From Bacteroidales bacterium (GTDB lineage: Bacteria > Bacteroidota > Bacteroidia > Bacteroidales > UBA1715), in NCBI GenBank assembly GCA_017516865.1, contig JAFXAU010000017.1:748-64747 (forward strand): DNA of 64,000 bases. Direction: 5' to 3'. Below the pieces are notes generated by a model. The model saw nothing but the letters and a program-made list of their open reading frames with translations. It was not told where the DNA came from and did no database searches. Of this stretch, positions 29,722 through 38,543 are shown in pieces (within the stretch, counting starts at the first letter, position 1; every line of letters starts with the position of its first letter). The position numbers and the translations under genes were made by a program.

Positions 29722-30156
29722 TTATTTCTTGAACAATTTTCCTAAAATTCCTGTTGCCGCACCAAGAAGGTTACCCTTTGAACCTCCTGCTGCCGAAGCT
29801 CCCAATGCCGAAAGAATAGAGGTAAGGTCGAGGCCGCTGTCTTTCGACGTGAGTTTGCCAATGATGGTTGGTAACAACGATGTGGCTAAATTTGCCGTAG
29901 TTTTATCCAATCCAAGTTTGCTCGCAATGTTTTTGGTGAAAAGTTGCGTAGCCAATGATGTTATTGGGCTCGACTCAGCCGAAGTTTTGCCAGTGAACAA
30001 TTCGGTGATTTGTTCAATACCGCTTGCCGATTGAGCTTTTTCCTTTACGCTTCCGAAAATTGAATCCGACAATCCGCCTAATACGTCGGAACTTAAGTTA
30101 CTGCCCGATGCGGCAGATTGAACTTGCTTAAGAATTAAATCTGTGATTTGTGACAT
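29722..30156 (-). CDS. hypothetical Ser/Leu/Gly-rich protein (possibly DUF937-like)
   Basis: 144 aa of low complexity. The LGLDKTTANLATSLLPTIIGKL segment resembles DUF937. The family call is weak. Confidence 0.45.
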   Translation of the reverse strand: MSQITDLILKQVQSAASGSNLSSDVLGGLSDSIFGSVKEKAQSASGIEQITELFTGKTSAESSPITSLATQLFTKNIASKLGLDKTTANLATSLLPTIIGKLTSKDSGLDLTSILSALGASAAGGSKGNLLGAATGILGKLFKK

Positions 30157-30370
30157 AATAATTTTATTTTAAAAGTTATAGCATACAAATATATGAACTG
30201 TTTTGAAATAAATTGCAGAAATAGGATTTGTTTTTCCTAAAAGGGTAATGAGTTTGACAAAAGTAACCCCACTCTGACTTATAACCCTAACTCATAATTA
30301 ATAACTTAATCGTTCGTCTATTTTTTCAAAAAAAATATAACTAAATAGGTGAACAAATAAAAAAAATCTC

Positions 30371-30378
30371 TATGTTTG
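30371..30378 (+). promoter_or_regulatory. Bacteroidetes -7 promoter box (TATGTTTG) of the trp operon
   Basis: Exact TAnnTTTG match 20 nt upstream of the leader ORF ATG. Confidence 0.6.
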
Positions 30379-30398
30379 CGTCAACAAAAAAGAACAAA

Positions 30399-30455
30399 AT
30401 GAAAGTAATGAATAACAATTTTTGGTGGTGGCAAACTTATGACCGAATGTCGTAA
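30399..30455 (+). CDS. candidate trp operon leader peptide (MKVMNNNFWWWQTYDRMS)
   Basis: 18 codons plus TAA. Three consecutive TGG codons at 30423-30431. Located between the promoter and a terminator hairpin upstream of trpB. Confidence 0.7.
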   Translation: MKVMNNNFWWWQTYDRMS

Positions 30456-30511
30456 GTAGAGAGGCCATTTCCAAAAACAAAATATAAAGGGGGCTTGTCA
30501 ATCTTACGACA
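30448..30511 (+). promoter_or_regulatory. candidate antiterminator pairing
   Basis: TGTCGTAAG (30448-30456, spanning the leader stop codon) is perfectly complementary to CTTACGACA (30503-30511). The latter covers the terminator loop and the first 4 nt of its 3' arm. Confidence 0.5.
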
Positions 30512-30525
30512 AGCTCCCTTTTTTT
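30489..30525 (+). terminator. attenuator terminator upstream of trpB
   Basis: GGGGGCTTGTC / GACAAGCTCCC (11 bp, one G-U pair), 8-nt loop, T7. It lies 31 nt before the trpB ATG. Confidence 0.8.
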
Positions 30526-30556
30526 GTTGAATTATGAATCGAAAAAAATTAAAAAT

Positions 30557-31747
30557 ATGAAATCATATCAAGTTGACAACAATGGTTACTACGGAGAATT
30601 TGGCGGGGCGTACATTCCCGAAATTCTCTACAAAACGGTGGAAGATTTGAAAAAGGCGTATCTTCCCATAATTGAAAGCGATGCGTTCCAAAAGGAATAT
30701 CGCGCATTGCTCAAGAACTATGCTGGTCGTCCGTCGTCGCTGTATTTTGCAAATCGCCTGAGCGAAAAATATGGTTGCAAAATTTATTTGAAACGCGAAG
30801 ACCTGAACCATACGGGTGCCCACAAAATCAACAATGCTCTCGGACAAATTCTGATTGCCAAGGCGATGGGCAAAAAGCGTATCATTGCCGAAACGGGCGC
30901 TGGTCAGCACGGTGTGGCAACGGCCACGGTGTGTGCCTTGATGAATATGCCGTGCAGAATTTATATGGGCGCGACCGATGTGAAACGTCAGCACATGAAC
31001 GTGGAACGAATGAAAATGCTTGGCGCGGAGGTTTTCCCCGTTGAAAGCGGAAATATGACGCTGAAAGATGCCACGAACGAAGCCATCCGCGACTGGTGCT
31101 GTCATCCTGCCGATACATTCTATATTATTGGCTCAACGGTTGGACCACATCCGTATCCCGATATGGTGGCTCGTCTGCAAAGTGTTATCAGTGAGGAAAT
31201 TAAATATCAGCTGAAAGAACAGGAAGGTCGTGAAAATCCTGATTATTTAATCGCCTGCGTTGGTGGCGGAAGCAATGCCGCCGGAACAATTTACCATTAT
31301 ATTGACGACGAAGATGTGAAAATCGTTCTTGCCGAAGCTGGCGGAAAAGGCGTGGATTCTGGACTCACTGCCGCCACAATTCAATGCGGTACGCTCGGCA
31401 TCATTCACGGAAGCCGCACGCTCGTTATGCAGACCGAAGATGGTCAGATTGTGGAACCATATTCAATTTCCGCTGGACTTGACTATCCAGGAATCGGTCC
31501 TATGCACGCCAATCTTGCTAAACAGCACAGAGCAACCGTTTATGCAATAAACGACGACGAAGCCGTTCGTGGTGCGTACGAGCTCACCAAGTTGGAAGGC
31601 ATCATTCCCGCTCTTGAGTCGGCTCACGCTCTTGGCGTTTTGCCAAAATTGAATTTTAAACCTACCGACGTGGTTGTGCTAACCGTAAGCGGGCGCGGCG
31701 ACAAGGATTTGGAAACGTATCTCAATTATAAGAAAGAATTAAAATAA
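30557..31747 (+). CDS. trpB: tryptophan synthase beta chain
   Basis: ORF 30524 trimmed to the ATG at 30557, because the extension overlaps the terminator T-run. Contains YGEFGGAYIPE and the PLP-lysine motif HTGAHKINN. Confidence 0.95.
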   Translation: MKSYQVDNNGYYGEFGGAYIPEILYKTVEDLKKAYLPIIESDAFQKEYRALLKNYAGRPSSLYFANRLSEKYGCKIYLKREDLNHTGAHKINNALGQILIAKAMGKKRIIAETGAGQHGVATATVCALMNMPCRIYMGATDVKRQHMNVERMKMLGAEVFPVESGNMTLKDATNEAIRDWCCHPADTFYIIGSTVGPHPYPDMVARLQSVISEEIKYQLKEQEGRENPDYLIACVGGGSNAAGTIYHYIDDEDVKIVLAEAGGKGVDSGLTAATIQCGTLGIIHGSRTLVMQTEDGQIVEPYSISAGLDYPGIGPMHANLAKQHRATVYAINDDEAVRGAYELTKLEGIIPALESAHALGVLPKLNFKPTDVVVLTVSGRGDKDLETYLNYKKELK

Positions 31748-31758
31748 AAGATAGAAAG

Positions 31759-33165
31759 ATGAAAAAGTTTAGTTATACTGTTTTTGAAAAACAAATGTTC
31801 GGCGACACGTGTACTCCCGTAAGTGTCTATATGCGAATCAGAAATCTCTACACGCAAAGTGCTTTAATGGAATGTTCCGATTACCACAGTTCTGAAAACG
31901 GCTGCTCGTATATCGGCGTTCGCCCAATCGCCCATGTTGCCATAGAGCACGGTCTGGGTAAATGCGTCTATCCCGACGGCAGTTTGTACCAACATCCAAT
32001 CAATGCAAACTATCTTCCGTCGGATATTATCAATGAATTTTTGAACGAATTCAATGTAAACAACGACAAAAATCTGGGACTGTTCGGCTACACGTCGTTC
32101 AATTCCGTTCGTTACTTGGAAAACATTGCCGTGAAAGACGAGACACAGGTGAAGAACGATGCACCCGATATGATTTACATTCTTTATAAGTATGTCATCA
32201 CGTTCAATCATTTCGACAACACTATGAGCATCAGCGAACTTGCTGCCGACGGCGAAAAATCGGACATCGAAACGATTGAAAAGGCGATTCAAAAACCTTT
32301 TGTGACAAAATATGAATTTCATCATATTGGCGAAACAACCAGCACGCTCACCGACGAGCAGCATAAAGAAAACATTCGCAAGGGAATTGAACATTGCAAG
32401 CGCGGCGACGTGTTTCAAATCGTGCTGAGCCGTCGTTTTGTGCAACCTTACGAAGGCGACGATTTCAATGTTTACCGTGCGTTGCGGAGAATCAATCCGT
32501 CGCCGTACTTGTTTTACTTTGATTTCGGCGGATTTCGAATCTTTGGTTCGAGCCCCGAAACGCATTGCCGTGTGAAAAACGAAAATGGAAAATTCATTGC
32601 ATACATCGACCCGATTGCGGGAACAACAAAACGTACTGGCGACGAGGAACAAGATGCCCGCAATGCCGAATATCTTCGCAACGACCCGAAGGAAAACGCC
32701 GAACACGTGATGTTGGTTGACTTGGCACGAAACGACTTGAGCCGTAACTGTCACGACGTGCACGTGGATTTTTACAAAGAATTGCAATATTACAGCCACG
32801 TGATTCACTTGGTAAGCCGTGTGAGCGGTACGCTGGACGACGACAAAAATCCTGTCAAGGCGTTTATGGACACGTTCCCCGCAGGAACATTGAGCGGAGC
32901 GCCAAAAATCCGTGCTATGCAACTGATTAGCGAATACGAACCGCACAATCGCGGAATGTACGGCGGTTGCGTCGGATTCATCGGATTCGACGGTTCTCTG
33001 AATCAGGCAATTACAATCAGAACATTCGTTTCGAGAAACAATGAATTGTGGTTTCAGGCAGGCGGCGGCATTGTTGCCCAAAGCGACGAAGAATATGAAT
33101 TGCAAGAAGTTAACAACAAATTAGGTGCATTGCGCAGAGCAATCATACTTGCCGAAGAAGCATAA
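31759..33165 (+). CDS. trpE: anthranilate synthase component I
   Basis: 468 aa. Contains PSPYLFYF, GTLSGAPK and GGGIVAQSD motifs. Confidence 0.93.
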   Translation: MKKFSYTVFEKQMFGDTCTPVSVYMRIRNLYTQSALMECSDYHSSENGCSYIGVRPIAHVAIEHGLGKCVYPDGSLYQHPINANYLPSDIINEFLNEFNVNNDKNLGLFGYTSFNSVRYLENIAVKDETQVKNDAPDMIYILYKYVITFNHFDNTMSISELAADGEKSDIETIEKAIQKPFVTKYEFHHIGETTSTLTDEQHKENIRKGIEHCKRGDVFQIVLSRRFVQPYEGDDFNVYRALRRINPSPYLFYFDFGGFRIFGSSPETHCRVKNENGKFIAYIDPIAGTTKRTGDEEQDARNAEYLRNDPKENAEHVMLVDLARNDLSRNCHDVHVDFYKELQYYSHVIHLVSRVSGTLDDDKNPVKAFMDTFPAGTLSGAPKIRAMQLISEYEPHNRGMYGGCVGFIGFDGSLNQAITIRTFVSRNNELWFQAGGGIVAQSDEEYELQEVNNKLGALRRAIILAEEA

Positions 33166-33176
33166 AACTGAACGAT

Positions 33177-33740
33177 ATGAAAATAGCATTGATTGATAAT
33201 TACGACAGTTTCACGTACAACCTGTACCACTTGTTGAAAGAACTCAACGTGGAAGTGAGTGTGTTCCGAAACGACCAGTTTCAAATGAACGAGCTGGAGG
33301 CATTTGACAAGATTTTACTCAGTCCCGGACCGGGCATTCCAAAAGAATCGGGCTTGCTGATGGACGTGATAAAAACATACGCCGGCAAGAAACCGATTTT
33401 GGGAATTTGCCTTGGCGAACAAGCCATCGGCGAAGCATTCGGAGGTACGTTGACAAACCTATCCAACGTGTTCCACGGAGTTCAAACGCCAACCGATATT
33501 GTAAGAGAGGATTATTTGTTCAATAATCTTGACAAGGAAATTCCCGTCGGACGCTATCATTCATGGGTTGTTGACAAGGATTCGCTCCCAGCCGATTTGG
33601 AAATTCTTGCGGAAAGCAAGGAAGGGTTTATAATGGCTCTGCGTCACAAGACATACGATGTGCGCGGCATTCAATTCCACCCCGAATCGGTACTTACTCC
33701 CGACGGAAAACAAATAATGAAAAACTGGATTTTAAACTAA
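33177..33740 (+). CDS. trpG: anthranilate synthase component II (glutamine amidotransferase)
   Basis: Contains LSPGPG, catalytic GICLGEQ, and IQFHPES. Confidence 0.93.
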   Translation: MKIALIDNYDSFTYNLYHLLKELNVEVSVFRNDQFQMNELEAFDKILLSPGPGIPKESGLLMDVIKTYAGKKPILGICLGEQAIGEAFGGTLTNLSNVFHGVQTPTDIVREDYLFNNLDKEIPVGRYHSWVVDKDSLPADLEILAESKEGFIMALRHKTYDVRGIQFHPESVLTPDGKQIMKNWILN

Positions 33741-33746
33741 TGTGAT

Positions 33747-34751
33747 ATGGAAAATTGTTTAAGAAAAATTGTTGCTCAAGAAACGTTCACACGAAACGAG
33801 GCAAAAGAAATAATGCACGAAATTGTTGACCAAAAATATTCCGATATGCAAATCGCCGCAATATTGATGGGTATTCAAACTCGCGGCGTTACCGTTGATG
33901 AAATTTTAGGATTACGCGACGGTTTGTTGGAAACTGGCGTTCACACCGATATGAAACCGTATCAGGTGATTGACATTGTCGGTACTGGCGGTGACGGGAA
34001 AAATACGTTCAACATCTCAACTTGTTCGTGTTTCGTTGTTGCTGGCGCTGGCTACAAGGTTGCAAAACACGGAAACTACGCCGCTTCGTCGGTGAGTGGT
34101 GCGAGCAACGTGCTCGAAGCCCACGGCGTTAAGTTTACAGCCGACAACGATGCGCTGAAACGCAGTTTGGAAGAATGTGGCTTTGTTCACCAACACGCAC
34201 AATTGTTCGCCAAAGGAATGAAATGGGTCGGTCCTGCCCGAAAAGCACTGGGACAACTGGGAACTCCTTCGTGCTTCAATTTGTTAGGTCCGCTGGTAAA
34301 TCCCTGCAATCCCGATTATCAGTTGCTTGGAACGGCAAACTTAGACCAACAGAGATTGTATCATCAAGTATATCAACGAATTGGAATAAAATATGGCATT
34401 GTAACCAGCATAGACGGCTACGACGAAATTTCGCTTACTGGAAGTTTCAAAATAGTGTATAATGAGGAAGAACACGTCTATCAGCCGGAAGAATTTGGCA
34501 TGCAGGTCATCAATCCTAAGGAAATCTACGGCGGAAGTACGCTGGAAGACGCAAAAGAAATTTTCGACGCTGTGTTGGAAAACAGGTCAACTTTGGCACA
34601 AAAGAACGTGGTTCTTATAAACTCCGCATTCGCAATCCACGTGATTGAACAACAAAAGACGTTCAACGAATGTCTGTCGCTTGCAAAAGAATCGCTCGAA
34701 AGCGGACGTGCATTGCAATGTCTGAAAAAATACATCGAACTAAATTCGTAA
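33747..34751 (+). CDS. trpD: anthranilate phosphoribosyltransferase
   Basis: Contains DIVGTGGDGKNTFNIST and KHGN. Confidence 0.93.
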   Translation: MENCLRKIVAQETFTRNEAKEIMHEIVDQKYSDMQIAAILMGIQTRGVTVDEILGLRDGLLETGVHTDMKPYQVIDIVGTGGDGKNTFNISTCSCFVVAGAGYKVAKHGNYAASSVSGASNVLEAHGVKFTADNDALKRSLEECGFVHQHAQLFAKGMKWVGPARKALGQLGTPSCFNLLGPLVNPCNPDYQLLGTANLDQQRLYHQVYQRIGIKYGIVTSIDGYDEISLTGSFKIVYNEEEHVYQPEEFGMQVINPKEIYGGSTLEDAKEIFDAVLENRSTLAQKNVVLINSAFAIHVIEQQKTFNECLSLAKESLESGRALQCLKKYIELNS

Positions 34752-34754
34752 GCT

Positions 34755-35558
34755 ATGGCCGATATTTTGGAGGAAATTGTTGATAATAAGCGTATTGAAG
34801 TTGATGCGGCAAAACAAAAACTGCCGTTTTACGAACTTACCAAACGTGTGGAGCAGTTTTTGACAGAAAATCCGCTGAAACCACGTTCCATGCACGATAC
34901 GCTGATGGCAAGCAAGTCGGGAATCATTGCGGAATTTAAGCGTAAATCGCCGTCGAAAGGATGGATTCATGCCGACGCAGTGCCGACCGACGTGGTGCCG
35001 TTGTACGAGAAGAATGGAGCTTCGGCGGCTTCCATTCTTGTTGACGAAAAATACTTCGGCGGCTCGAAACAGTTCATCGAAACGGTACGCCCGATGGTTT
35101 CTCTTCCAATTTTGTACAAAGAATTTATTGTTGACGAATATCAGTTGTACGAGGCGAAACTTGCTGGTGCCGACACCGTGTTGCTCATTGCGGCTACGCT
35201 TTCGGCTCCGATGGTGAAAAAATTGGTGGAAACCGCCCATCAGCTTGGTCTGGAGATTTTGTTCGAGGTTCATTCCGTGTCGGAATTGAACAAAGTCGTG
35301 CCAGAAATTGATATGCTCGGCGTGAACAACCGTCATTTGGGCACGTTCGTCACCGATGTGCAATGGTCATTTGACATTGCCGACAAACTATCGAAGGATT
35401 TTTTGCTCGTGAGCGAAAGCGGCATAAGTAATCCGCAGACTGTGAAAGAATTACGGAATGTTGGCTATAGAGGATTTCTCATTGGAGAATGCTTTATGAA
35501 AGAACAAAATCCGGGCGAGGCGTTGAAAACATTTATTCAAAAGATAGAGCAATGTTGA
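34755..35558 (+). CDS. trpC: indole-3-glycerol phosphate synthase
   Basis: Contains IIAEFKRKSPSKG and the VNNRHLGTF pattern. Overlaps trpF in an ATGTTGA arrangement. Confidence 0.93.
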   Translation: MADILEEIVDNKRIEVDAAKQKLPFYELTKRVEQFLTENPLKPRSMHDTLMASKSGIIAEFKRKSPSKGWIHADAVPTDVVPLYEKNGASAASILVDEKYFGGSKQFIETVRPMVSLPILYKEFIVDEYQLYEAKLAGADTVLLIAATLSAPMVKKLVETAHQLGLEILFEVHSVSELNKVVPEIDMLGVNNRHLGTFVTDVQWSFDIADKLSKDFLLVSESGISNPQTVKELRNVGYRGFLIGECFMKEQNPGEALKTFIQKIEQC

Positions 35559-36175
35559 TAAAAGTGTGCGGAATGCGTGATTCCGAAAATATGAAGGCAA
35601 TTGCCGATTTAGACGTGGATTTTATGGGAATGATTTTCTATCCACGTTCAAAGCGCTATGTTTCGGAAGTGCCGTCGTTCCGCCCGTTGCGGCAGAAATT
35701 GATTGCGGTGTTTGTGAATGCCGACATCGACGAAATCATCAAAACAGTGGAAACCTTTCACTGCGACGGCATTCAGTTGCACGGCGATGAAACGCCTGAA
35801 TTTGTACGTTCGTTGAAAAGCACGTGCAATTGTCTGGTTATTAAAGCATTCCAAATTGCAAAAGTCGAAGATTTGCAGAAAACGTGTCAGTACGAAAACA
35901 TGTGCGACTATTTTTTGTTCGACACGGCAACGCCTTCGTACGGTGGAAGCGGTGAATCGTTTGACTGGTCGGTACTTGCCGAATACAAAGGTAAAACGCC
36001 GTTTTTGTTAAGTGGCGGCATCGGAGCAGATAGCGTGGAAAGAATCAAACAATTTTCGCATCCGCAGTTTGCTGGAATCGATATAAATTCTAAATTTGAA
36101 ACCAGTCCTGCTGTGAAAGATGTGGAAAAAACAAGAAGGTTTGTAGAAGAATTAAGAATTGTAGAGACGCAATGA
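35552..36175 (+). CDS. trpF: phosphoribosylanthranilate isomerase
   Basis: ORF 35489 trimmed to the ATG at 35552 (MLIKVCGMRD). Contains LSGGIG. The stop codon lies inside a GTAGAGAC-type hairpin. Confidence 0.9.
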   Translation: MLIKVCGMRDSENMKAIADLDVDFMGMIFYPRSKRYVSEVPSFRPLRQKLIAVFVNADIDEIIKTVETFHCDGIQLHGDETPEFVRSLKSTCNCLVIKAFQIAKVEDLQKTCQYENMCDYFLFDTATPSYGGSGESFDWSVLAEYKGKTPFLLSGGIGADSVERIKQFSHPQFAGIDINSKFETSPAVKDVEKTRRFVEELRIVETQ

Positions 36176-36185
36176 ATTGCGTCTC
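36161..36185. repeat. GTAGAGAC-family hairpin element (truncated copy overlapping the trpF stop)
   Basis: GTAGAGACGCAAT-GA-ATTGCGTCTC, stem of 10 bp (GAGACGCAAT/ATTGCGTCTC). Confidence 0.7.
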
Positions 36186-36212
36186 ATTGAATAAAAATGA
36201 ACGATTATTAAT

Positions 36213-36240
36213 GTAGAGAAGTGCCATGGTGCGTCTCTAC
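36213..36240. repeat. GTAGAGAC-family palindromic hairpin element
   Basis: GTAGAGAAGTGCCA|TGGTGCGTCTCTAC, 14-nt arms with one mismatch and two G-U pairs. It lies 18 nt before the trpA ATG. Confidence 0.8.
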
Positions 36241-36257
36241 GATAAAAACAAAAGAAT

Positions 36258-37034
36258 ATGAACAGAATTAATCAATTATTTAAGACAAAGACCAACAATA
36301 TTTTGAGTCTTTATTTTTGTGCAGGGGCACCAACGTTGGACGGCACAGTTTCGGTGCTTCAGGCAATGGAACAGAACGGAATCAATATGGTGGAAATTGG
36401 CATCCCGTTCAGCGACCCTATGGCCGACGGTCCGGTTATTCAGACGGCGGCAACCAAGGCGTTGCGAAATGGAATGTCGCTGAACCTGTTGTTTTCGCAG
36501 TTGAGAGATGTGCGTAAATCGGTAAACATTCCGCTCATTCTGATGGGATATTTGAATCCTGTGATTCAATACGGCTTTGAAAACTTCTGCAAAAAATGCG
36601 TCGAAGTCGGTGTTGACGGAATGATTTTGCCCGATTTGCCTTTCAAAGACTATTTGGAAGACTATAAACCTATTGCCGACAAATACGATTTGCGAATCAT
36701 CATGCTCATCACTCCCGAAACGAGCGAGGAGCGTATTCGTTTCATAGACGAACACACCGACGGCTTTATTTATATGGTTTCGTCGGCAGCCACAACAGGG
36801 GCACAAAAAACGTTCGACGACCAGAAACAGGCCTATTTCAACCGAGTTCACGCAATGAATCTTCGCAATCCGTTGATGATTGGCTTTGGCATCTCGAACA
36901 AACAAACGCTGGAATCGGCACAGGCAAACGCCAACGGGGCTATCATCGGCTCCAAGTTCGTACAACTGCTCGACGATGCAAATGGCGATGCGGAAAAAGC
37001 AGTGAAGAATTTGTTTGAGTGCTTGGGGAAATGA
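36258..37034 (+). CDS. trpA: tryptophan synthase alpha chain
   Basis: Contains EIGIPFSDPMADGPVIQ and the GFGIS motif. Confidence 0.93.
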   Translation: MNRINQLFKTKTNNILSLYFCAGAPTLDGTVSVLQAMEQNGINMVEIGIPFSDPMADGPVIQTAATKALRNGMSLNLLFSQLRDVRKSVNIPLILMGYLNPVIQYGFENFCKKCVEVGVDGMILPDLPFKDYLEDYKPIADKYDLRIIMLITPETSEERIRFIDEHTDGFIYMVSSAATTGAQKTFDDQKQAYFNRVHAMNLRNPLMIGFGISNKQTLESAQANANGAIIGSKFVQLLDDANGDAEKAVKNLFECLGK

Positions 37035-37316: not shown

Positions 37317-38543
37317 ATGAAATATGTAAAAATTGCGGTTGGAATGCTGTGCGTGATGGCAGTGGGACTATATGCGTATAGCGAGATTGCTGAAAATGAG
37401 ATTGCAAAGGTAGAATCTGCGGTGCAAAAAACAGAACAAACAACAATACCGTTGAAAGTCGGGGCGGAGCGGATGGAAGTATATTTGCCACTGTTGCAGG
37501 GGAAAAATGTGGGTGTTGTCGGTAATCAGACATCGGTTGTAAAGCAGACGCATCTTGTCGACACACTTATCAAACGAGGTGTTTCGGTAAAGAAAATCTT
37601 TACTCCCGAACATGGTTTTCGTGGTACTGCCGATGCAGGTGCGAGTGTGAACAACGGTGTTGACGAAGTGACAGGCCTGCCATTGATTTCGTTGTACGGA
37701 AAACATAAAAAGCCCACTCCCGACGATTTTCAGGGAATTGATGTGATTGTGTTCGATATTCAAGACGTAGGAGCTCGTTTCTACACTTATATTTCCACAA
37801 TGCACTACGTGATGGAAGCCTGTGCGGAAAACAACGTTCCCTGTATCGTTCTCGACCGTCCGAATCCGAACGGATTCTATGTCGATGGACCAGTGTTAAA
37901 ACTTGCTAATCAGTCATTTGTGGGAATGCACCCCGTCCCAATCGTACATGGAATGACAATTGGCGAATATGCCCAAATGATAAATGGTGAAAAATGGCTT
38001 GCCAACGACGTGAAATGTGATTTGAAAGTTATTCCATGCGAGGGTTACGACCATACGGTGAAGTATAAAATTCCTATTCCGCCGTCACCGAATTTGCCGA
38101 ATATGCAGGCAATTTATTTATATCCTACGCTATGTCTGTTCGAAGGTACGGTTATGAGTGTCGGCCGCGGTACGGATTTCCCTTTCCAAGTAGTCGGACA
38201 TCCGCAATATAAAGATTCAACTTTTTTCTTTAGGCCCGAAAGTAGGACGGGGGCGTCAAGTCCATTGTATGAAAATAAAAAATGCTACGGGAAAGATTTT
38301 CGCACGTATGATGTTTCGAAAATACACTCGCTCGACATTTCAATTTGGAAGGAAATGTATAAGAAATATGGCGGCAATGAATTGTTTTTCAACCGTTTTT
38401 TTATAAAACTTGCTGGTACTCCCGATTTGCAACGCTCAATAGAATTGGGGCTGTCCGAAGAAAAAATTAGAGAAAGTTGGAAACAAGATTTGGATTTATT
38501 TCGGCAAATTCGTCAAAAATATTTGCTTTATAAAGACTTCTAA
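37317..38543 (+). CDS. DUF1343 family protein (exo-beta-N-acetylmuramidase NamZ-like)
   Basis: Signal-like N-terminus. Contains GVVGNQTS...FTPEHGFRGTADAG...VFDIQDVGARFYTY, the DUF1343 hallmark. Confidence 0.8.
   Translation: MKYVKIAVGMLCVMAVGLYAYSEIAENEIAKVESAVQKTEQTTIPLKVGAERMEVYLPLLQGKNVGVVGNQTSVVKQTHLVDTLIKRGVSVKKIFTPEHGFRGTADAGASVNNGVDEVTGLPLISLYGKHKKPTPDDFQGIDVIVFDIQDVGARFYTYISTMHYVMEACAENNVPCIVLDRPNPNGFYVDGPVLKLANQSFVGMHPVPIVHGMTIGEYAQMINGEKWLANDVKCDLKVIPCEGYDHTVKYKIPIPPSPNLPNMQAIYLYPTLCLFEGTVMSVGRGTDFPFQVVGHPQYKDSTFFFRPESRTGASSPLYENKKCYGKDFRTYDVSKIHSLDISIWKEMYKKYGGNELFFNRFFIKLAGTPDLQRSIELGLSEEKIRESWKQDLDLFRQIRQKYLLYKDF

Follow-up and report, generated by a model that had tools for sequence, protein, structure and literature searches.

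The 64 kb of Bacteroidales DNA analyzed here (contig JAFXAU010000017.1; the whole stretch is referred to as the window) carries, ahead of a trpBEGDCFA operon, a leader that is very probably a classical four-segment ribosome-mediated transcription attenuator and a divergent member of the Bacteroid-trp family of leader RNAs. This reading is directly supported by the features of the leader, by their conservation, by covariation of the 1:2, outer 2:3 and 3:4 pairings among its segments, and by the dependence of folding calculations on the position of the ribosome. The leader features were read straight from the sequence between 30100 and 30800. An initial annotation had listed a −7 box, a short open reading frame (ORF) with three tandem Trp codons, a terminator, a 9-nt complementarity and the trp operon, and each of these lies where it had been placed:

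30371–30378, + strand: putative Bacteroidetes-type −7 promoter box TATGTTTG, which fits the consensus TAnnTTTG.
30399–30455, + strand: leader ORF MKVMNNNFWWWQTYDRMS, 18 codons plus TAA, with its ATG at 30399 and the TAA at 30453–30455.
30423–30431, + strand: UGG UGG UGG, three consecutive Trp codons found by direct reading, the proposed sensing site.
30486–30525, + strand: intrinsic terminator with a 14-bp stem (30486–30499/30508–30521), a loop (30500–30507) and a U-tract (30519–30525).
30557–37034, + strand: operon trpB-trpE-trpG-trpD-trpC-trpF-trpA, with NCBIfam equivalog matches for all seven genes.

The motif TGGTGGTGG is unique in the window when both strands are scanned, and the first base of the last UGG lies 7–8 nt 5′ of segment 1 (defined below) both here and in the common Bacteroides-type leaders. 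The start codon at 30399 is retained in a close relative, L090, in which the second ATG (30408) has become TTG; a further in-frame ATG at 30372 is probably not transcribed because it lies inside the −7 box. That box is a predicted promoter. Of 61 related leaders, 52 have a TAnnTTTG box no more than 110 nt 5′ of the Trp codons, in most cases 18–40 nt ahead of the first in-frame ATG, and the close relatives L089 and L090 retain it with identical spacing. The leader ORF is separated from the first structural gene by the intrinsic terminator, whose core stem GGGGGCUUGUC/GACAAGCUCCC (30489–30499/30508–30518) comprises 11 G+C-rich bp with a single G–U pair and is lengthened to 14 bp by A–U pairs (30486–30521). 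The stem closes an 8-nt loop, AAUCUUAC (30500–30507), and is followed by seven T residues at 30519–30525. The same hairpin is recovered by a terminator scan, with an energy of −23.2 kcal/mol, and trpB (30557–31747) starts 31 nt past the U-tract.

The region 30384–30530 folds at −49.6 kcal/mol, compared with −25.8 ± 3.7 kcal/mol for dinucleotide shuffles (z = −6.5), and the minimum free energy (MFE) structure of the free RNA consists of two hairpins, the terminator and a hairpin that we call P1 (30420–30476, about −23 kcal/mol). In the outer part of P1, UUUUUGG.UGGUGG, which includes the Trp codons, pairs with CCAUUU.CCAAAA, so that the UGG codons lie opposite 30464–30476; in the inner part, ACUUAUGAC pairs with GUCGUAAGU (30449–30457). 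P1 therefore has the regulatory codons on its 5′ strand and is the classical 1:2 anti-antiterminator hairpin, which means that the initial annotation was mistaken in describing two hairpins rather than four segments. The 9 nt spanning the leader stop codon, TGTCGTAAG (30448–30456), are the exact reverse complement of CTTACGACA (30503–30511); when the upstream segment was shuffled 200 times, this complementarity was equalled or exceeded once. Segment 2 is paired with segment 1 in the free RNA and with 30489–30511 once segment 1 is masked, and the segments are delimited as follows:

30420–30443, + strand: segment 1, the 5′ arm of P1 in the MFE folds, holding the Trp codons and ACUUAUGAC (30435–30443).
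30448–30476, + strand: segment 2, the 3′ arm of P1 or, alternatively, the 5′ strand of the antiterminator, with the stop codon within UGUCGUAAG (30448–30456).
30489–30511, + strand: segment 3, running from the terminator 5′ arm through the loop into the upper 3′ arm, which forms the 3′ strand of the antiterminator in constrained folds.

When the RNA is folded at increasing lengths, the outcome depends on the position of the masked ribosome. When the third UGG occupies the A site (mask 30414–30441), a composite antiterminator of −22.1 kcal/mol is the MFE structure for RNA ends from 30506 to 30518. It comprises 19 bp between 30448–30472 and 30489–30511, is mutually exclusive with the terminator and is built from four helices: an outer helix UGUCGUAAG:CUUACGACA (30448–30456:30503–30511), GA:UC (30459–30460:30498–30499), AGGCC:GGCUU (30462–30466:30492–30496) and UCC:GGG (30470–30472:30489–30491). 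The 5′ arm of the terminator is in this way captured before its 3′ partner exists, as in classical 2:3 pairing. Contact with only the loop and 3′ arm would pose a kinetic difficulty, a concern that was dropped once the constrained folds showed these 5′-arm-sequestering helices. At an RNA end of 30518 the antiterminator stands at −22.1 versus −20.9 kcal/mol, and the terminator overtakes it only when the RNA to at least 30519 is free, reaching −24.6 kcal/mol. A ribosome placed on the stop codon (mask 30438–30465) covers segment 2, and the terminator then builds up progressively from 30512; in ribosome-free RNA P1 retains segment 2 and the terminator forms. The central proposal of the initial annotation, that the antiterminator is masked by a ribosome that has reached the stop codon and freed by one stalled at the Trp codons, thus finds support in folding as well as in the comparative data that follow.

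Related leaders were collected by a TrpB-based scan that kept one genome per species and yielded 80 loci, all from Bacteroidales, with the best TrpB matches (89% identity) in Paludibacteraceae metagenome-assembled genomes (MAGs) from horse faeces and ruminants. Among these loci we obtained 57 distinct leaders, each with a short ORF encoding WW or WWW 150–220 nt 5′ of trpB and then an intrinsic terminator. Most loci that initially appeared empty hold WRW leaders or a non-ATG start, so that a WW, WWW or WRW leader ORF plus terminator is present at about 71 of the 76 trpB loci with enough upstream sequence. An alignment of these upstream regions, which the initial annotation had proposed as a check, confirms that the tandem Trp codons are conserved and that the pairing arms covary. 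It had also considered a trpB-first operon unusual. This view does not hold, because trpB leads the operon, with trpE following it, in 80 of 80 related loci and is therefore the normal first gene in the group.

Covariation was scored on a MAFFT alignment of the 57 distinct leaders. In the outer antiterminator helix (S2:S4; 30448–30456:30503–30511), 82% of cells pair, versus 23–60% when the 3′ partner is slid by 1–3 columns; seven of the nine pairs show double changes, and the observed covariation score is reached by no shuffle. The 9-bp pairing first noted in the window therefore covaries across the family, including at positions in the terminator loop. The middle base of the stop codon and its loop partner are AU in 29 leaders, GC in 15, GU in 11 and unpaired in 2, and the next two pairs between stop codon and loop are AU 40/GU 6/GC 1 and GC 40/GU 8/AU 2, although the terminator itself places no constraint on these loop nucleotides. 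Leaders ending in ...GUCGUAAG have the loop sequence CUUA, those with UGAG have CUCA or UCAC, and the one leader with UAGG has CCUG. The middle stop-codon pair is A–U in the window and G–C in its closest TrpB relatives (Paludibacteraceae L001–L004 and L060). In a Prevotella-like subgroup the stop codon lies 5′ of the segment, and GUUGUG still pairs with the CACAAC of the terminator apical loop through a pairing that carries a matched one-base insertion (ACGUUGUG:CACAACGU versus ACAGUUGUG:CACAACUGU). The inner 1:2 helix (30435–30443:30449–30457) pairs in 80.5% of cells, with four of nine pairs doubly changed (columns 30–50, UA 29/CG 24), and in the main terminator helix 97% of cells pair and each of the 11 pairs shows compensatory changes. 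When all columns are scanned against one another, the 1:2 pair ranks first and the S2:S4 stop-codon/loop pair falls within the top 7.

The inner antiterminator helices were assessed by folding each sequence and its shuffles rather than by column covariation. For 55 leaders, folds were computed with a ribosome mask at the last UGG while the final 6 nt of the terminator 3′ arm were hidden. The antiterminator fully replaces the terminator in 44 of the 55, with a median of 7 terminator 5′-arm nucleotides and 8 loop or 3′-arm nucleotides paired upstream. With the ribosome on the stop codon it forms in 5 of 55, and with shuffled spacers in 71 of 550 (13%). The diverged close relatives L089 and L090 behave in masked folds as the window does, and their substitutions leave the pairings in place: an A–U pair becomes U–A between segments 1 and 2, AGGCC becomes AAGUC in the antiterminator with its pairing to GGCUU intact, and the terminator stem changes from GGGGGCUU/AAGCUCCC to GGAGGCUU/AAGCCUCC.

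The leader is not called by Rfam at its own threshold. The Bacteroid-trp model (RF01692, Bacteroidete tryptophan peptide leader RNA) scores 29.8 bits at 30379–30499, short of its gathering score of 49, with E = 0.23 when 501 nt are searched. Of the 13 weak matches obtained for 30150–30650 at E ≤ 10, it heads the list and has the highest score. The window shares the consensus blocks UGGUGGUG, UCGUAAG and GGCUUGUC with RF01692, and the cmscan alignment places it on the model hairpin that encloses the UGG codons, with many non-canonical pairs. Only 5 of 20 relatives tested reach the gathering score; the remaining 15 fail with the same architecture. The five (L013, L014, L025, L038 and L061) come from Bacteroides, Phocaeicola, Parabacteroides and a Bacteroidaceae MAG (L013), which indicates that RF01692 represents chiefly the Bacteroides, Phocaeicola and Parabacteroides type. 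We built an nhmmer profile from 56 leaders, five of them above the Rfam threshold and none from the window; it matches 30413–30522 on the + strand with E = 1.3e-13, its sole strong match in the window. Judged by sequence, the window leader is homologous to the Bacteroid-trp leaders but has diverged too far for the narrow curated model to call it.

The Bacteroid-trp motif was described in the supplement to Weinberg et al. 2010 (Genome Biol 11:R31, PMC2864571), where it is given as a loosely conserved hairpin with neither a consensus diagram nor an antiterminator. Our literature search yielded nothing on the motif beyond this 2010 prediction and a brief mention in Flavobacterium psychrophilum; two further papers (PMC1173090 and PMC2395257) were uninformative on the Bacteroid-trp leader. 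RF01692 and the window leader share their position 5′ of trpB/trpE in Bacteroidetes and a short ORF whose tandem UGG codons fall within a hairpin. The Rfam model ends at the terminator 5′ arm. The novelty implied by the initial annotation was overstated, since the family has been in Rfam since 2010. What goes beyond the published description is the three-state model, the location of the stop codon in the antiterminator strand, the contact with the terminator loop and its covariation, and the observation that Rfam misses most Bacteroidales leaders. These additions are refinements of a known kind; they extend the 2010 prediction with a structural model and do not overturn existing understanding.

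We infer the use of the promoter and its start site, ribosome stalling, polymerase pausing, the order of folding and the response to tryptophan, and the model would operate as follows. Transcription would probably start a few bases past the −7 box, and a ribosome would then translate the 18-codon leader. When Trp-tRNA is plentiful, the ribosome would reach the UAA within segment 2 (UGUCGUAAG) and cover that segment, so that the terminator (3:4) forms and transcription stops near 30525. If the leader is not translated, segment 1 would pair with segment 2 in P1, again leaving the terminator free to form. When Trp-tRNA is scarce, a ribosome stalled with the final UGG codons in the A site would mask segment 1. 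The freed segment 2 (30448–30472) would first take the emerging 5′ arm of the terminator through UCC:GGG, AGGCC:GGCUU and GA:UC and would then zip along the loop and into the upper 3′ arm of the terminator through UGUCGUAAG:CUUACGACA, blocking the terminator while RNA polymerase passes the U-tract and allowing transcription of trpB and the genes downstream. The more specific proposal, that the outer helix of the Bacteroidales trp antiterminator is made by the leader stop-codon segment with the terminator apical loop and upper 3′ arm, is one on which we regard the case for and against as evenly balanced.

A number of points weigh against this model. In full-length folds the terminator is the MFE structure under every ribosome mask, and the 9-bp helix by itself (−9.3 kcal/mol, compared with −23.2 kcal/mol for the terminator) never displaces it. 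The masked folds suggested by the initial annotation thus did not bear out the short helix; the longer composite of −22.1 kcal/mol is needed, and the simple equilibrium two-state model is rejected. The switch consequently rests on co-transcriptional kinetics, which we only approximated by hiding 3′ nucleotides or lengthening the RNA stepwise, and the ribosome footprint (−15/+12 nt around the first A-site base) is assumed from other bacteria. The inner 1:2 helix may persist with the ribosome on the first UGG, and antitermination would therefore need a stall at the second or third. In the alignment, many unrelated column pairs also score, because shared ancestry inflates covariation counts and the events are not independent; the spacer that contains the inner antiterminator helices aligns poorly across subgroups, with pairing registers that differ by one column; and RNAalifold on the MAFFT alignment recovers only the terminator and is uninformative on P1 and the antiterminator. 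The RF01692 match lies below the gathering threshold, so that the window leader is missing from a gathering-threshold Rfam scan, and our literature search found no expression, Term-seq, reporter or other experimental data for Bacteroid-trp leaders.

Some of these points would equally suit a reading in which the Trp attenuator is real but the 30448–30456:30503–30511 pairing is not its functional antiterminator, being instead a by-product of a GUCGUA-like sequence common to segment 2 and the terminator 5′ arm, with read-through set by other contacts or by the speed at which the ribosome clears the leader. The weakness of the helix at full length is what this reading would lead one to expect, and it is also favored by the target of the helix, a loop and 3′ arm that emerge later than the 5′ arm, by the resemblance of segment 2 to the terminator 5′ arm in most leaders, and by the group structure of the alignment, which yields spurious covariation elsewhere. 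However, it leaves unexplained why the loop nucleotides track the type of stop codon (UAAG/CUUA, UGAG/CUCA or UCAC, UAGG/CCUG). At the middle base of the stop codon 15 sequences are doubly changed and only 2 unpaired, the window has A–U where its closest TrpB relatives have G–C, and the Prevotella-like GUUGUG:CACAAC pairing persists with its matched insertion even though the stop codon lies outside the segment. We therefore consider this alternative improbable.

It is less probable still, and in our judgment very unlikely, that the terminator is constitutive or is regulated in some other way (as the 3′ end of a trans-acting leader sRNA, or as a protein or Rho target), with the Trp-rich ORF exerting no control. 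In its favor stand the outcome of the literature search noted above and the 5′ UTR, which would give a stable transcript of ~140 nt with a strong terminator at its end. Yet tandem UGG codons are kept at about 71 of 76 Bacteroidales loci while the remaining peptide varies, conservation extends to the distance between the last UGG and segment 1 and to a stop codon that falls in segment 2 or shortly ahead of it, and the fold depends on ribosome position far beyond the shuffled controls. The T-box model is not among the 13 Rfam matches at E ≤ 10 in 30150–30650, and no T-box or other riboswitch model gives a credible explanation for the region at that cutoff. Short ORFs and A/U-rich complementarity are common in AT-rich intergenic DNA and TAnnTTTG occurs 92 times in the window, but the notion that ORF, complementarity and terminator have come together here by chance is effectively refuted by the uniqueness of TGGTGGTGG, the z-score of −6.5, the profile match (E = 1.3e-13) and the retention of the whole arrangement across Bacteroidales families; we give it next to no weight. 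The four-segment attenuator remains the reading that we prefer.

Its logic is that of the E. coli trpL attenuator. In trpL, as worked out by Yanofsky, the antiterminator is less stable than the terminator and the decision is kinetic. The window leader shares the alternative 1:2, 2:3 and 3:4 pairings, the consecutive Trp codons in segment 1 and an antiterminator weaker than the terminator, which would make its decision kinetic as well. As in trpL, a ribosome at the stop codon would occlude segment 2. From stop codon to the end of the U-tract the distance is about 70 nt in both, so that the window leader is not unusually compact, as the initial annotation had thought. The two show no detectable sequence relationship, and none of the Rfam matches is to the trpL model. 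The window leader differs from trpL in having three Trp codons rather than two, in placing the stop codon inside the antiterminator strand itself, in an outer antiterminator helix that draws on the terminator loop and the start of the 3′ arm rather than on the 5′ arm alone, and in its predicted Bacteroidetes −7 promoter, the absence of a Shine–Dalgarno sequence and its trpB-first operon. In Bacillus subtilis, tryptophan is sensed by a protein, TRAP, and in the T-box leaders of Firmicutes through uncharged tRNA. As proposed for the window, an intrinsic trp-leader terminator competes there with an antiterminator, but sensing is not by the translating ribosome and an ORF with tandem UGG codons has no role. 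Experimentally supported trp leader-peptide attenuators outside the Proteobacteria, those of the Actinobacteria Corynebacterium glutamicum and Streptomyces venezuelae, are cited in PMC4833913. They resemble the window in having Trp-codon leader peptides and terminator/antiterminator alternatives, are unrelated to it in sequence and stand in another operon context, and they indicate that the leader-peptide mechanism recurs across phyla.

Several variants of the leader were seen among the relatives. A WRW subgroup (UGG CGU UGG; L019, L033, L050, L055, L062, L069, L070, L073, L075 and L078), exemplified by MTQNNSTYWRWRSLGFKKS, retains the ...AAAUCGUAAG ending and the terminator GCCUGUCGUACUUGCGAUAGGC. 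The Prevotella-like leaders (L008, L011, L017, L018, L023, L024, L026, L027, L041 and L051) end early (YWWWRxS*), have a small palindromic hairpin, GGGUUGCAACCC, immediately 3′ of the GUUGUG segment, and carry longer terminators in which the apical GGAC-ACAAC-GUCU is conserved. In Paludibacteraceae L001, L002, L004 and L060, where the leader lies about 190 nt 5′ of trpB, the ORF has 26–28 codons and the UGA within the antiterminator segment (GUUGUGAGG) is out of frame, so that a ribosome crosses the segment and stops about 30 nt later. The stop codon thus lies inside the segment in the window and ~30 nt beyond it in these four, a difference of timing within one family. A pattern scan of metagenomes returned 19 matches, of which only L081, L089, L090, L092, L094 and L097 are leaders; the other 13 are unrelated coding sequence. 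Three of the six are nearly identical to the window: L094 (Ga0247609_10000260, a 76.8 kb contig), L081, with one additional A ahead of the terminator, and L092, with an AAC to AGC change in the peptide. Their contigs probably come from the same species as the window and could point to its habitat.

Around the leader, an ORF of 144 aa (29722–30156, − strand) is divergent from it across an A/T-rich spacer of 240 nt, and another of 408 aa (37317–38543, + strand) follows the operon; neither of these flanking ORFs has an NCBIfam match at E ≤ 0.001. Within the operon, the longest trpF ORF overlaps trpC by 70 nt (35489–35558) and the NCBIfam TrpF match starts at residue 22; the true start of trpF is probably a later codon near the trpC stop. 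Elsewhere in the window there is a SAM-I/IV riboswitch aptamer (RF01725; 62317–62441, + strand, 42.7 bits against a gathering score of 41.1) and an 84-nt tRNA gene (2313–2396, + strand, 62 bits with Rfam) with a long variable arm, probably for tRNA-Leu(CAA) because its anticodon loop reads CUCAAAA. The Paludibacteraceae MAG L060 has two Acido-Lenti-1 copies (RF01687; 5801–5846 and 5902–5947, − strand) ~100 nt apart, each scoring 37.5 bits against a gathering score of 37. These lie outside the taxa for which the motif is named, and the pair could be a repeat element or a chance threshold match.

For annotation, the consequence is that RF01692 misses most relatives outside Bacteroides and Parabacteroides, and that a model rebuilt on the wider alignment and including the terminator would recover the trp leaders of Bacteroidales. 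If the outer antiterminator helix is formed as proposed, the terminating ribosome would sit directly on the antiterminator strand, and the terminator loop would serve as a toehold whose sequence covaries with the stop codon used (UAA, UGA or UAG); tight coupling of transcription and translation would then operate in a phylum that initiates translation without Shine–Dalgarno sequences. Leader-peptide attenuation needs a ribosome close behind RNA polymerase, and the conserved leaders are in this sense indirect evidence for coupling in gut and rumen Bacteroidales, members of a phylum with unusual promoters and no Shine–Dalgarno-led initiation. At ~150 nt, the leader also offers a compact and mutable system in which transcription–translation coupling in Bacteroidota could be tested cleanly. 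Because the tryptophan supply of gut Bacteroidales matters to host indole and tryptophan metabolism, the trp switch is of some practical interest.

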